Numbered from the stretch's first letter, positions 20,663 through 31,011 are shown. The stretch: DNA of 64,000 bases from Bacillota bacterium (GCA_023388515.1 JAEWGD010000005.1:26259-90258); one strand, 5' to 3'. The notes: generated from the letters alone by a model not told the origin. Numbers and translations are program-made.

Positions 20663-21061
20663 ATGATTTTTAATTATAACTGCAATTGTCCGAATTGTGC
20701 TAAGGCAAGAGCAATTAATGATGCTCAGTCTGCACAAAATGCACAGAACAGCTCAAACGGTTTTGATAGATGTAGACCTTGCCCACCGCCATGCCCACCA
20801 TGTCCACCTGCCCCACAATGCATGTGTTTTTTTACAGGGCCAACAGGAGATACTGGTCCAACAGGTTCTACTGGTCCAACAGGTTCTACTGGTGCTACTG
20901 GTCCTACTGGTGCTACTGGTGCTACTGGTCCTACTGGTGATACTGGTCCAACTGGTGATACTGGCTCTACTGGTCCAACTGGCGACACGGAACAAACTAT
21001 TTATGCTCTACCAAAATGTACCAACCATAACACAATTGACACGCTTCCCCTAAACGTCTAA
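20663..21061 (+). CDS. collagen-like (BclA-type) protein, N-terminal fragment truncated by insertion
   Basis: RBS aggagg upstream. A Cys/Pro-rich N-terminus ([14 protein letters not shown]) is followed by GPT/GDT/GST triplets from 20825 to 20989. The frame then runs into unrelated sequence ([11 protein letters not shown]...) to a stop. Confidence 0.6.
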
Positions 21062-21285
21062 AGATACGCTACGCAAAACAAAATTCAAAGCTTCATAACC
21101 ACTAAAAGCACCTGCGTCATAGCAAGTGCTTTTATTCTGCCATATTATGTTTCCAGTGACTTCAGCCAGTCAATTGGCTATTAATATCCCTCAGTGCACT
21201 TCTGCTGATCGGCATTATATATTTTTTTGTGCTTCAAATACTTGTTTAGCTACACTTTTACCTAGAATACCCATGATTAATCACC

Positions 21286-21969
21286 CTATTTTAATTTCTC
21301 ACACAACGGCAGGATTTCTTCCAGTTTGGCAACGATTCGCTGTTGTTCGGCGAGGGGTGGGAGGGGAATAAGACAACTTTTCAGATAGTCTTTGTGAATA
21401 CGTTGCTGACCAGCAGTTCCAGTAAATAATTTTACACCATTAACAATAAAATAGTCAGTCTTAAAAAACCAAAGTAAAAACTCATTAAACAATGTATTCT
21501 TAATTACTCTTACAATCGATAACTCCGTAGTACCAGCACCATATTCATTTTCTAATTCTTTGAAAATTACCGATTTTCTGTTTTGAAAGCACGGGGTGAT
21601 CTTGGCAACACCTATGTCACCATTTGCAAAATGGGTAAAGCCTTTTTTGATCTCTTTCCATTTCCTCACTTCAAATGTATGTTGATTTCTAAATCCACCA
21701 GACACACATGGCATTGGTATAAATGCCACATCCAGGTTGTCATCAATAACGTTCTTTGGATTCAATGTAGTAATGCTACCAACCCTTACCCACTTCCAAC
21801 TCTCTGGAATTGGCTCCATCTTTTTGTTATCATAAATACCTTTAGATTTCTTTTCTGCTTGTATTAAAGAGTACAGTTCTTCAGCAGAACCTTCTTCGGT
21901 GCGCTGTTCAACAAGCCTCCCGCATATTGCTAATTGAATAATACTGTTTTTCAGTTCCTGTGGTGTCAT
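21286..21969 (-). CDS. hsdS: type I restriction-modification specificity subunit, half-size (single TRD)
   Basis: Circularly arranged central conserved region at the N-terminus (ELKNSIIQLAICGRLVEQ), one target-recognition domain, and C-terminal LPPLAEQQRIVAKLEE. It overlaps the hsdM stop. Confidence 0.7.
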   Translation of the reverse strand: MTPQELKNSIIQLAICGRLVEQRTEEGSAEELYSLIQAEKKSKGIYDNKKMEPIPESWKWVRVGSITTLNPKNVIDDNLDVAFIPMPCVSGGFRNQHTFEVRKWKEIKKGFTHFANGDIGVAKITPCFQNRKSVIFKELENEYGAGTTELSIVRVIKNTLFNEFLLWFFKTDYFIVNGVKLFTGTAGQQRIHKDYLKSCLIPLPPLAEQQRIVAKLEEILPLCEKLK

Positions 21970-23340
21970 TCTTTGGCACCTCCGAGAATGGAGGTAATTT
22001 CAGCAAGCACATGGTCAATCTTGGAATTCAGCGATGCCCGTCGCTCTTCGTACTGCTGAATCAAGTCCATCGGGTCGAGGATTTCCTCTTCCTTGTGAGG
22101 ATAGCCACACTGGTCGAGGTTATAGCCAAAATCATCGGTAAGTTGTGGTGCTGTGTATTTCTTTGCCTTATCAAAGCCGTCAATATTAATCTCCTGTCGG
22201 TCATTCAACCATTCGACCACTGGGTTGAAATGCTCCAGTTTCATTGGCCTGGTTTTAGAGAAGTGCTTATAGCCCTTAGGCATATCCAGACGGTAGAACC
22301 ATGTTTCTGTGGTCGGCTTTGTGCGCTCAAAGAACATGATGTTCGTGGTGATGGAAGTGTAGGGTGCAAACACGCTGTTCGGCATCCGTATGACTGTATG
22401 CAGATTAAATTCCGAGAGCAGTTTTTTTGATGTTTACTTTCGCATTGTCTGTACCGAACAGAAACCCGTCTGGAATGATAACAGCTACACGCCCGTTTTT
22501 CTTTAAGCGGTACATGATGACAGACATAAAGAGGTCTGCTGTTTCACTGCTGGCAAGGTCGGCGGGGAAATGGTTCTTGACATCTGCTTTTTCACTGCCA
22601 CCATACGGGGGATTCATCAGAATGACATCGAACTGATCGTCCTCTGTATAATCCAACACATCCCGCAGTAGAGAGTTGTCATGATAGATTTTTGGTACAT
22701 CAAGACCATGAAGTAGCATATTTGTAATGCAAAGCATATACGGGAACTGCTTTTTCTCAACGCCGTAAATCGAATTATCATATTCACGTTGGTCGCCTGT
22801 AGTCTTAATCAATGGAGAGAGCTCTTTCAGCCAGCTTGTAATAAAGCCACCAGTACCACAGGCAAAGTCTGCCATTCGCTCGCCAATTTTCGGCTGTATC
22901 ATTTTTGCCATGAAATCAGTGATGGCACGAGGCGTGTAAAACTCACCAGCAGAACCTGCACTCTGTAATTCACGGAGAATGGATTCATAGATTTCACCAA
23001 AGGCATGGCTTTCTTCATAGTCGCTTAAATCCAATTCGTCTATAGTATTGATGACTTGACGGAGCTGGACACCATCTTTCATATAGTTGTTGGCATCTTC
23101 AAAGGTTGTCTTAACAATGGATTTCTTAATCGGAGTGTCTGGTGTCACATTCAGTTCTTTGAGTGTGGGGAAAAGAGTATTGTTGACAAAATCCATCAGT
23201 CTATCACCAGTCATGGCGTTGCCACTCTTGTCATCTACAGCCCAATTGCTCCAACGGCACTCCTCTGGAATAAAAACCCTGTCGTGTAACATCAAGCGTT
23301 CTGCAATAGAAAGCGATTTTGCCCATAATTTTTCCATCAT
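21966..23340 (-). pseudogene. hsdM: type I RM DNA methyltransferase HsdM, frameshifted at an A7 tract (22422-22428)
   Basis: N-part 22405-23340 carries GEFYTPR, FACGTGGF, NPPYGG and RVAVIIPDGFLFG. C-part 21966-22385 carries ...NIMFFERTKPTTETWFY. Deleting one A from the A7 run gives a continuous IKKLLSEFNLHTVIRMPNSVFAPY... reading frame. Confidence 0.75.
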
Positions 23341-23502
23341 TTGTTTTCAAGGCAATGAATTTCATTCTTTCCTTTTTGCAGACCTCTGACGGCTGGCGGC
23401 GAAAAAAGAGCTGGCTTCCTCCAAGAGTTTCTTACTCAATTCAGTTTTGAAAAATTCTTTGAGATACAGCAACAATATTTTACTTATTTTTTATGATTAT
23501 AT

Positions 23503-23531
23503 GTTGACAAAATAACACTATTATGTTACTA
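23503..23531 (+). promoter_or_regulatory. candidate sigma-A promoter for the island operon
   Basis: ttgaca, a 17-nt spacer, then tactat. A further tgttataat lies downstream. Confidence 0.4.
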
Positions 23532-23582
23532 TTATCTTGTTATAATATGTTATTATTTATTGAAAGGAGTATTATTTTAGAT

Positions 23583-29289: not shown

Positions 29290-29560
29290 ATTTTGGTGTT
29301 CAAAGTGCTTCTAGGAAGAGTGATTGTTCTTACGCATAATCCGATAAGAAAATTAAACGTAAATACGAAATTAGATAAAGAGGCGCGAAAGTTTGATGAC
29401 CTGCTGAAGCGTGATTTTAAGGCTGAAGAGCCTTGTAAAAAAGTGTGTAACAGACATTACTGAGATTAAAGCGAGCGATGGAAAATTGCGGTATATCACA
29501 CCAACACCTTGTCCATTACCAAAAACTCACTGTGAACATACCTATAACCTTCTCAAAATC
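29290..29560 (+). pseudogene. IS3-family transposase (OrfB integrase-core) fragment, frameshifted and truncated
   Basis: Two frames together read ...LLKRDFKAEEP.KKV / KKCVTDITEIKASDGKLRYITP. This matches the IS3/IS150 OrfB region (LL.RDF.A..PN.KWVTDITE....G.KLYLS) and then degenerates. Confidence 0.45.
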
Positions 29561-29929
29561 AGCCTAAAAACAGTTGTAATTCACACAATAAAAGCAAAAA
29601 AACACGCTGATTCTTACGGTTTTCACACCAATAATCGCATGATTTTACGCTGTTTTTATTCGCCTAAGGTGAGATTGGCAGAGGTGGTGTGGGTTGTGTA
29701 TTTCTGGAAGTCGCTATCTAATATGTTGCAAACTTTTGCCATACGATACATTCTTGAAGCAAGTCCCTTAAATTGAGGACTTGCTTTTTGCGTCCACGCG
29801 AACGGATCGCAAACCACCGCAGCTCGCTTTGTGCTTGGATATGAACAGCATGAACCACTTATCGTAAGCATTATATTAAGGTCACTACGAAAATATCATG
29901 GAAAAAGCATATAATATAGTAGAGCCACT

Positions 29930-30120
29930 CTTCTAGTTCCACTCCATTCAAGAGCGGCTTCGGAGCGGAACCCGGAGCGACTTCCCGCCAGGTTCTATCA
30001 GGGTTTGAGCGGAATGAGCGGGTTGCCTCAACCCATTATGTCATATAAAATCTAAAATAAAATACATAAAATAAGAAAAAAATTATATAGAGTTGGAATT
30101 ACCCGCTCATTCCGCTCATG
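29930..30120. other. GC-rich segment with a long-range inverted repeat gagcggaatgagcgggt / acccgctcattccgctc
   Basis: The local GC is far above the surrounding ~35%. The 17-bp inverted repeats sit about 80 nt apart, directly upstream of the HNH remnant, resembling a phage packaging-region remnant. Confidence 0.35.
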
Positions 30121-30143
30121 TTTGTCCATAAGGAGGTTTTTCT

Positions 30144-30347
30144 ATGCCACCCAAAGCACCACGTCCCTGTGCTTACCCAAGATGTCCCAACCTTACCACT
30201 GAGCGATATTGTGAACTCCATAAAACCATTGCGTCCCGTGAATATCAGAAGCTTCGCGATCCCGCTACCACTGCTCGTTACGGTAGTGAGTGGAGACGTA
30301 TTAGAAATCGATATATTTCTCTGCACCCGCTTTGTCGACCTGATTGA
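30144..30347 (+). pseudogene. phage-type HNH endonuclease, N-terminal remnant
   Basis: MPPKAPRPCAYPRCPNLTTERYCELH...YGSEWRRIRNRYISLHPLC matches the conserved N-terminus of phage HNH endonucleases. The ORF stops before the HNH catalytic motif and no frame continues it. Confidence 0.55.
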
Positions 30348-30489
30348 TGTCATGCTGCTTCATCCCGATGGAACACTGGAAATCCGATTGAACTACGCTG
30401 ACCAGTATCAGAGAGTAATTGAGTTTCTGGAAAACAATCAAAAGCACTTAGCCTAAGATTTTTTAAGGCAAGGGAGCGTATTAATTGAG

Positions 30490-31011
30490 GGATACACTGG
30501 TTCTACTGGTCCAACTGGTCCAACAGGATCTACTGGTCCTACTGGTGCTACTGGTCCAACTGGTGATACTGGTGCTACTGGCCCTACTGGTCCTATACAG
30601 CAATTACGAGGAATACAAGTTCAGCTTACCGACGCAGGAAACACTTTTGTTGACACTGGCAACCCCGTAATTTTCAACAATGTAATAAATGACCAAAGCT
30701 TAAATGTTAATTATAACACATTAACAGGTGAATTCACTATCAATGAATCTGGCAACTACTATGTAACATGGTGGGTTGCTACTGATGGTGCTGGCCCTTC
30801 ACTTACAATCTCTTTTGCAGTGGAAGTAAACGGAAGTCTTAATATTCTTGGCTCAACTCCAATAGTTACAGGGCAAGTTACAGGCAGTGCCTTTGTTGCT
30901 GTAGGAGCTACCCCTGCTACAATAAGACTTGTAAACCTAACAGCTGATGACACAATGTTCGCAAATACCCCTGTTCAAGCAAATATGATAATCACAGAAA
31001 TATCTAGCTAA
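30490..31011 (+). pseudogene. collagen-like (BclA-type) protein, C-terminal fragment with no start codon
   Basis: The frame opens directly in [16 protein letters not shown]... triplets (30490-30600). A globular C-terminal domain follows (...[31 protein letters not shown]...), typical of BclA/C1q-like exosporium proteins. No ATG or RBS. Confidence 0.65.

Follow-up and report, generated by a model that had tools for sequence, protein, structure and literature searches.

The 64,000 nt of Bacillota bacterium DNA considered here (GCA_023388515.1, JAEWGD010000005.1:26259-90258; referred to below as the window) contain two fragments of a BclA-like collagen-repeat gene, separated by an island of different gene content. 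The locus raises the question of whether the fragments are halves of one gene and, if so, what was inserted between them. An earlier note on this DNA proposed a single surface gene split by a mobile-element or recombination event. The island, positions 20989-30497 (9,509 bp), is in all likelihood an immobilised remnant of an integrative element inserted into the collagen repeat by a large serine recombinase (LSR). The features of the host gene and the island ends are listed below; L085 and L098 are loci carrying related elements.

20663-20988, +: 5' fragment of the BclA-like host gene, with a ribosome-binding site (RBS) and ATG, a Cys/Pro-rich domain and GxT triplets up to the crossover
20987-20988, +: putative crossover AC of attL, the first two bases of the Thr codon in GGC GAC AC/G (slash, crossover), in register with L085 and L098
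20989-21008, +: candidate element arm P' of attL, GGAACAAACTATTTATGCTC, matching the L085 arm GGAAGCATTCATTTATGCTC and encoding the start of the EQTIYAL.. tail
30331-30456, +: last 41 codons and stop of an LSR with a DUF4368-type tail (phmmer, blastp)
30476-30495, +: candidate element arm P of attR, GCGTATTAATTGAGGGATAC, followed by the putative crossover AC at 30496-30497; in register with seven other LSR-proximal junctions
30498-31011, +: 3' fragment of the BclA-like host gene, with GxT triplets and a BclA/C1q-fold domain and no start codon

The two gene fragments and their intact orthologues

The left open reading frame (ORF), 20663-21061 (+), encodes 132 aa behind an AGGAGG-type RBS. Its Cys/Pro-rich N-terminus and 17 GxT triplets are followed past 20989 by an unrelated tail running to the stop at 21061 (tail 20989-21061). 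The right open frame, 30457-31011 (+), has a stop codon immediately upstream (30454-30456) and no ATG, GTG or TTG before its triplets; it comprises 12 GxT triplets and a 137-aa globular domain ending at 31011. The earlier note had described these features, from the RBS to the derailment and the start-less resumption, where they are found. Both fragments exceed the Pfam Collagen gathering threshold of 27.2 bits (36.2 bits for the left and 27.6 for the right), and both carry the collagen-like Gxy (mostly GxT) triple-helix repeat. A family of 9-nt repeats connects the two regions, and both junctions lie within period-9 repeat DNA. No stop codon or frameshift has been acquired in either fragment. 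The changes in the C-terminal domain that could be polarised on the window lineage are three synonymous and no non-synonymous ones, too few to test selection.

The globular domain matches Pfam BclA_C below the gathering score (27.4 vs 38 bits) and C1q also below threshold. An AlphaFold model of the domain, made from six homologues (pLDDT 80, pTM 0.78), matches F-BclA (9h38), BclA (1wck, 2z5w) and the C1q heads at TM 0.73-0.81 and probability 1.00, and collagen X NC1 within the same TM range. The modelled fold is consistent with the C-terminal TNF/C1q-type jelly-roll trimerisation domain of BclA-like proteins, which agrees with the BclA/C1q-like assignment made earlier. The order of a GxT region and then a TNF/C1q jelly-roll is shared with BclA of B. 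anthracis, F-BclA of B. thuringiensis endospore appendages and BclA1-3 of C. difficile; apart from the low BclA_C score, the window protein differs in its Cys/Pro-rich N-terminus, which by eye is unlike the exosporium-targeting leader of B. anthracis BclA. Sporulation-associated genes (YabP, YabQ, DUF421 and DUF4363) lie near the split gene, whose product is presumed, by analogy with BclA, to be a spore-surface protein.

Two intact proteins, P0001 (219 aa, 94% identity to the joined protein) and P0002 (234 aa, 64% identity across its full length), are each encoded by a single ORF and share the Cys/Pro-rich N-terminus and the C-terminal domain with the window fragments. They have fewer triplets, the number of which differs among relatives; in the C-terminal domain, the right fragment and the intact orthologue share 96% identity. 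P0002 is carried by three Clostridiales metagenome-assembled genomes (MAGs; L002-L004) with the gene order NUDIX, DUF4363, DUF421, P0002 gene, S1, YabQ, YabP, which is the order in the window. P0001 is carried by an Oscillospiraceae MAG (L001), in which GH25, a 145-aa gene, YabQ and YabP follow downstream, as in the window. L001 DNA aligns with 20469-20894 and then directly with 30532-32788 at 89-92% identity (blastn); its collinearity with the window to the left and right of the island is at 89-95% identity. Since intact orthologues with both domains occupy the same place in two lineages, flanked by DUF421 on one side and GH25/S1/YabQ/YabP on the other, the fragments are halves of one gene. 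The comparison with related genomes that the earlier note had proposed shows an empty site (attB) at the syntenic position in L001 and in L002-L004, and these relatives have one intact gene there, not the two separate complete collagen genes that would speak against a split.

The junctions are identical in three independent assemblies: Logan contig L006 (100% match across 14095-24263), ENA metagenome contig L008 (99.99% across 21135-34540) and Logan contig L009 (100% across 30357-32693). Each junction passes from repeat to unique sequence, not from repeat to repeat. In the Logan assembly of SRR13243540, contigs break at 24239-24263 and at 30357-30384 with overlaps of 25-28 nt; the second break falls within the LSR tail, which suggests that the sample contains another sequence of this kind, perhaps from an intact paralogous LSR. 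Many MAG contigs (L034, L035, L041, L046, L056 and others) stop inside the collagen repeat, tens of nucleotides from the C-terminal domain, so fragmented collagen genes in short-read data are often assembly breaks and evidence from the junctions is needed.

The recombinase tail and the attachment sites

The reading frame at the right end of the island encodes the peptide FVDLIDVMLLHPDGTLEIRLNYADQYQRVIEFLENNQKHLA, which ends at the stop codon 30454-30456, 19 nt before the P arm of attR. The 41-aa peptide had no match in Pfam, PHROGs or a word-indexed protein search, and tblastn against phages gave one weak match. An exhaustive phmmer search of 1.84 billion representatives returned 20 hits at E<=1e-3, most of which align in a single stretch. 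The best single-stretch matches had 45-62% identity, with E-values down to 4e-8, and all lay at the extreme C-terminus of the subject. Four of seven matches scanned with Pfam carry LSR domains, namely Recombinase, Zn_ribbon_recom and DUF4368 in P0135 and Zn_ribbon_recom in P0131, P0133 and P0134; P0123 has a sub-threshold DUF4368 alone, and two short fragments have no Pfam match. Among the 120 listed relatives of the L085 LSR, more than 30 have tails that the peptide also matches (blastp, E down to 1.5e-13). The placement of the matches at the extreme C-terminus, together with the LSR domains in them, identifies 30331-30453 as the C-terminal tail of an LSR.

Locus L085, from a Ruminococcus sp. 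MAG, was picked by a scan for LSR genes among 60 loci encoding related C-terminal domains. Its collagen ORF has a Cys-rich N-terminus and derails after GPTGAT into EAFIYAQVYFSYSLQ and a stop codon. The cargo (response regulator, histidine kinase, ABC transporter) is followed by a DUF6870 gene and a 567-aa LSR with all three domains (Resolvase, Recombinase and Zn-ribbon), and six nucleotides after the LSR gene a collagen C-fragment with a BclA_C domain begins. A search with the L085 LSR returned thousands of relatives; its closest match in the curated phage and plasmid collections has 43% identity, and a scan of viral contigs found nothing. Genomic contexts were retrieved for another seven lineages at 55-84% identity to the L085 LSR, which makes eight LSR lineages in all; over everything examined, identity to the L085 LSR spans 55-95%. 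Among the seven are:

P0221, locus L098
P0231, loci L099/100
P0143, loci L101-103
P0166, locus L104, Amphibacillus sp. Q70, complete genome
P0189, loci L106-109, indexed in 297 blocks of the collection
P0225, loci L110/111

The DNA past the LSR stop enters a Gxy/GxT-coding repeat, in register, in 8/8 lineages, and a DUF6870 gene precedes the LSR in every one examined. In L098, where the collagen gene is on the opposite strand, both junctions are present on a single contig. Relaxase, MobC and ArdA genes also occur in L101, and Sigma70_r4_2 and HTH_16 genes at several LSR loci; these mobilisation and regulatory genes indicate that many members of the clade resemble integrative and conjugative or integrative and mobilisable elements (ICE/IMEs). 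Small cargo elements as well as Tn916-like ICE/IMEs carry the DUF6870-LSR module, in Oscillospiraceae, Ruminococcus, Amphibacillus and gut metagenomes. A layout that departs from the simple split-gene architecture is present in L083 (7598-10405) and L084, from the Bacillota MAGs OH_HFB_328 and OH_SBB_106. There the DUF6870-LSR pair is divergent from a collagen/BclA_C gene and, on the opposite strand, ends a few nucleotides from its first GxT triplet; a pair of 8-nt inverted repeats, ATGTATAT..ATATACAT, lies just before the triplets, and the other flank of the LSR is a LacI-type gene.

The LSR-proximal flanks were aligned on the junction as a 20-nt arm, a 2-nt core and host repeat, and the LSR-distal flanks as host, core and arm:

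L085, LSR-proximal: arm GAGCATAAATGATTGGAGCC, core AC, host CGG..
L101, LSR-proximal: arm GAGCATAAATTACTGGAGCC, core AC, host AGG..
L099, LSR-proximal: arm GTGTATAAAAAGATGCAGCC, core AC, host CGG..
L106, LSR-proximal: arm GGGCATAAATTAACGGTGCT, core AC, host CGG..
Window, LSR-proximal: arm GCGTATTAATTGAGGGATAC, core AC, host TGG..
Window, LSR-distal: host ..ACTGGCGAC, core AC, arm GGAACAAACTATTTATGCTC
L085, LSR-distal: host ..ACAGGAGCC, core AC, arm GGAAGCATTCATTTATGCTC
L098, LSR-distal: host ..GCACCA, core GT, arm GGAAGCATCAATTTATCCAC

The core is GT in the inverted insertions L098, L104 and L110. Its asymmetry fixes the orientation: AC on the LSR strand corresponds to an element co-directional with the collagen gene, and GT to an inverted one. 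The attP reconstructed for L085, GAGCATAAATGATTGGAGCC-AC-GGAAGCATTCATTTATGCTC, is 42 bp long (20+AC+20) with perfect 12-nt terminal inverted repeats, and the dyad symmetry of the arms is 16/20 in L085 and 17/20 in L098. The arms follow the consensus GnGyATAAA..., and the distal arm encodes an x-I/V-Y-A/T-Q/L peptide after every derailment (EQTIYAL, EAFIYAQ, DASIYTQ, GTLVYAQ, GAFIYTQ). With a position matrix built from nine half-sites of other clade members, the window being left out, the arm at 20989-21008 (-) ranks 2nd and the arm at 30476-30495 (+) 12th of 127,962 positions. The top match in the window, 1785-1804 (-), CAGCATAAATAGTTGCTCCC, at 19.5 bits, lies inside a beta-ketoacyl synthase gene, with neither a collagen repeat nor a partner arm in its vicinity; it is probably a pseudo-site that matches by chance.

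The earlier note had proposed a search of the junctions for target-site duplications or att-like repeats. The alignment supports the presence of att arms, imperfectly symmetric about a 2-nt core, and a direct-repeat search at the junctions recovered the host repeat but no target-site duplication; none is expected under LSR site-specific recombination, the proposed mechanism. The crossover would fall at the AC of the Thr codon in GGN GmC AC/N GGN. By the att alignment the GYT triplet and the EQT.. tail are element-encoded and the natural join is GDT-GST. The join of 20989 to 30490 proposed earlier is indeed in frame, giving 282 aa with GDT-GYT-GST, and the split does lie in the repeat; the exact position shifts, as the att-site comparison gives 20988 joined to 30498. 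Precise excision is predicted to leave an in-frame 279-aa ORF with the attB-type junction ..ACTGGCGACAC joined to TGGTTCTACTGG... The junction triplets GGC GAC ACG were also considered as element-derived on account of their odd codon usage; this was rejected, as the family alignment puts GGC GAC AC on the host side.

Proposed integration and decay, and alternative explanations

The proposed element would have carried an LSR gene at one end, reading toward the junction and preceded by the small DUF6870 gene, and an attP of two ~20-nt arms nearly symmetric about a 2-nt core; the host attB would be GxT-coding DNA. An LSR of this clade would have integrated the element at the GxT-repeat attB of the BclA-like gene. 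After integration the DUF6870-LSR module would have been lost except for the last 41 codons. A truncated phage HNH gene adjoins the presumed breakpoint, at about 30331-30347, and this HNH half and other scraps would now stand in place of the module. The same or other events may have broken the type I restriction-modification (RM) system of the cargo. The order of decay is tentative, and the DUF6870 protein is a putative directionality factor. As no recombinase is left, the element can no longer excise unaided. A 132-aa product may still be translated from the 5' fragment, but it would lack the trimerising C-terminal domain, and the 3' fragment has no start. The finding of an LSR tail and att arms at the island ends bears out the idea of a mobile-element insertion; the suggestion that the GPT-coding repeat promoted it is retained in so far as the repeat holds attB, the route being LSR site-specific recombination and not homologous recombination or transposition.

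Several points weigh against this reconstruction. The 64-kb window contains no other LSR piece, the catalytic part included, and no DUF6870 remnant. The closest LSR tail is 62% identical over 37 residues, and no close intact relative of this element was found. The symmetry of the window arms is 11/20, compared with 16-17/20 in intact elements, and the LSR-proximal arm is a weak matrix match (9.3 bits). The crossover dinucleotide was placed by alignment alone, and integration by this LSR is reconstructed, not observed. At some clade loci (e.g., L106-109) one junction is seen, and the collagen DNA there could belong to the element. The RM, RTX, HNH and insertion sequence (IS) pieces may be separate arrivals, so that the island is perhaps not the original cargo of one element.

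Other explanations were weighed against insertion by an LSR. That the fragments are separate genes or remnants never joined in this lineage, or a repeat-made assembly chimera, is in effect refuted: collagen repeats do often break short-read assemblies, and several loci end inside the repeat, but one two-domain gene stands at the same site in two related lineages, and three independent assemblies agree on junctions that pass from repeat to unique sequence. It is highly improbable that an IS3-type insertion sequence or composite transposon brought the island, with the LSR tail as a scrap of cargo. Possible IS3 scraps are present in the island and a homologue of its 475-aa protein lies beside IS3 orfA in L096; the scraps, however, are internal, not terminal, the junctions have neither terminal inverted repeats nor a target-site duplication, and the island ends carry LSR att arms. 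Campbell-type homologous recombination, in which circular foreign DNA with its own GxT repeat (e.g., a phage tail-fibre gene) would enter with no site-specific enzyme, could account for the location of both junctions in period-9 repeat DNA, for the atypical codons of the junction triplets (GGC GAC ACG and GGA TAC ACT) and for the phage-derived scrap. It does not account for the non-collagen sequence just inside the junctions, which corresponds to conserved LSR att arms in exact register with the 2-nt core, or for the LSR gene tail adjoining the right junction, and the same arm-core geometry in eight unrelated hosts is not expected from homologous recombination; we consider this route very unlikely.

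It is also very unlikely, if slightly less so, that the island is a working gene-intervening element of the skin/SPbeta/gin type, excised in the mother cell by a paralogous LSR encoded elsewhere in the genome. LSRs serve every sporulation-gene-intervening element characterised so far (PMC4191935, PMC5595907, PMC5025042). In the window both att arms can still be recognised, and precise excision would restore the reading frame. The fragments are free of stops and frameshifts, with the three synonymous and no non-synonymous changes in the C-terminal fragment, and the Logan unitig break in the LSR tail (30357-30384) hints at a similar sequence elsewhere in the sample. Against this, neither the element nor the 64-kb window has a recombinase or DUF6870 gene, the LSR-proximal arm is degraded (11/20 symmetry), and there are far too few substitutions to demonstrate selection. 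A search with the 282-aa GDT-GYT-GST join, not the 279-aa product, found nothing closer than the 94% orthologue, and mother-cell expression is assumed by analogy only.

The systems functionally nearest to an inserted and decayed LSR element are skin in sigK (SpoIVCA), SPbeta in spsM (SprA/SprB) and gin in gerE (GirC/GirX), all of which are LSR-excised; sporulation-gene-intervening elements include full prophages as well as minimal or decayed forms (PMC4191935, PMC5595907, PMC5025042). In both cases an LSR-borne element lies inside a coding region, relatives of the interrupted gene have late roles in forming the spore envelope, the recombinase gene is at the element end beside an att site, and precise excision would restore the ORF. 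The window insertion is within coding sequence with a predicted join that restores frame; the view of the host gene as a mother-cell gene is an analogy. The differences are that the window recombinase is destroyed and no regulated excision can be claimed, that the target is a repetitive collagen tract found in many genes instead of one unique position within one conserved gene, and that relatives of the window element resemble ICE/IMEs and not prophages. The functional LSR and directionality factor of skin, SPbeta and gin have no counterpart among the genes of the window, which lacks both an LSR and a DUF6870 gene; with no element-encoded LSR having Resolvase, Recombinase and Zn-ribbon domains, the window element is a remnant.

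The closest named mobile element is Tn5397, a Tn916-like conjugative transposon with an LSR, TndX, replacing Xis/Int. The gene order at the right end in L101, L104 and L106 (Sigma70_r4_2, HTH_16, a small ORF, LSR) resembles the regulatory end of Tn916/Tn5397. Insertion at a 2-nt core with no target duplication is common to both systems. The core of Tn5397 is GA, and its preferred target in C. difficile is not known to be a collagen gene. The annotated tndX genes are about 32% identical to the L085 LSR, which does not make the latter a TndX orthologue, and the LSR of the window clade is accompanied by a DUF6870 gene.

The attB of the LSR clade appears to be collagen-repeat coding DNA, which would make these elements an apparently undescribed variant of LSR integrative elements. 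Full-text searches of one literature library found no relevant paper on collagen repeats as an LSR target or on DUF6870, which is not proof of novelty. A further proposal, that this widespread DUF6870-LSR clade evolved a GxT-repeat attB and switches BclA-type genes off and on through excision in spore formers, is unlikely. Under it, excision would be by the element's own or a paralogous LSR, in the mother cell or on transfer, and the window would hold a fossil switch or a copy excisable in trans.

The split gene alone is ordinary pseudogenisation by a decayed island, and the interest lies in the explanation. DNA coding for collagen-like triple-helix repeats occurs in many genes of many Bacillota. 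Targeting of such repeats, if true, would explain the broad host reach of these elements, the frequent fragmentation of collagen-like surface genes in genomes and MAGs, and how spore-surface proteins could vary or switch on and off. The ~42-bp attP/attB pairs with an asymmetric AC core for natural LSRs are candidate genome-engineering tools.

Island cargo and the chromosomal neighbourhood

The remaining features of the island are the following.

21286-21969, -: half-size HsdS with one target-recognition domain (Pfam Methylase_S, E 7e-9)
21966-23340, -: HsdM pseudogene, type I RM methylase (Pfam N6_Mtase in two frames)
23523-24950, +: intact 475-aa gene, first of a conserved two-gene cassette (homologues beside RTX in L093 and L095)
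25010-28918, +: intact gene of a secreted 1302-aa RTX-repeat protein, second of the cassette (Pfam HemolysinCabind, E 1e-35)
29338-29503, +: possible IS3-family transposase scrap (..LLKRDFKAEEP../..VTDITEIK..), weakly supported (phrog_157, E 0.008)
30006-30023 / 30101-30118, no strand: perfect 18-nt inverted repeat enclosing an AT-rich loop of 77 nt; the HNH scrap follows shortly downstream
30144-30347, +: N-terminal half of a truncated phage-type HNH endonuclease (phrog_144, E 1.8e-13, profile positions 17-88/175)

The HsdM gene is truncated at its 5' end and lacks about 57 positions from the start of the HsdM_N profile. Between 22385 and 22405 the reading frame shifts, which divides its N6_Mtase domain over two ORFs in different frames (profile positions 3-200 in 22405-23340 and 213-285 in 21966-22385). 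A Pfam scan found no HsdR in the island. The 475-aa protein has no match in Pfam or PHROGs, and a viral-contig scan with it found nothing. The RTX protein has HemolysinCabind in 10 stretches, plus HCBP_related (Pfam). The pair of genes is a conserved cassette, found also in L093 and L095. In L093 (IMG/VR UViG_3300028576_001125, 256-10636) it is immediately preceded by three tandem LSR genes, which are of a different type, and the cassette may be habitual cargo of LSR elements. The homologue of the 475-aa protein that adjoins IS3 orfA is on a metagenome contig.

The possible IS3 scrap has some likeness to an IS3 transposase motif and no Pfam match. The HNH scrap shows 39-56% identity to HNH genes on 22 viral contigs. 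An Rfam scan of 20000-32000 returned one sub-threshold miRNA model on the 30006-30118 hairpin, which was taken as chance. The right-hand 1.6 kb of the island had no match in the phage and plasmid collections (blastn), and sigma-70 promoter and terminator scans near both junctions stayed at chance level. The inventory given in the earlier note is thus confirmed for the RM remnant, the RTX protein and the HNH piece and only weakly for the IS scar, and its GC-rich patch is modest. Base composition does not mark the island, with a GC content of 0.381 vs 0.365 in the rest of the window and a tetranucleotide usage within the range of the window.

Outside the island the window consists of core chromosome, with genes for fatty-acid synthesis, RNase R, PEPCK and PolA. 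A SEC-C-motif protein (18166-19122, -, 318 aa) lies between the NUDIX and DUF4363 genes and is missing from the syntenic L002-L004; a GH25 muramidase and a 148-aa membrane protein (31135-32314, -) are present in the window and L001 and missing from L002-L004. These differences show that the neighbourhood has gained or lost genes independently of the island. The S1-domain gene (32449-33069, -) has an internal tandem repeat at 32600-32800 with GGNSNYRGG-type units; multiple offset blastn matches show that L001 has its copies in another register than the window. The gene at 13156-14529 (-) encodes a BspA-type leucine-rich-repeat protein with a dockerin, and blastn ladders reveal many diverged ~69-nt tandem copies in 13437-14292.

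An intergenic repeat of ~80-230 nt (TTGTCATTCAATCTACTTTCCGTATGGTTAAATTTAAT..) occurs in four copies, at 17279-17372, 34369-34449, 49542-49672 (reverse) and 63774-64000. The copies fall where synteny with L001 and L002 breaks: after YabP, L001 continues with the inverted segment 49244->48114 of the window, and L002 with SecG and RNase R. The repeat may promote rearrangements, or it may be a regulatory element common to these places.

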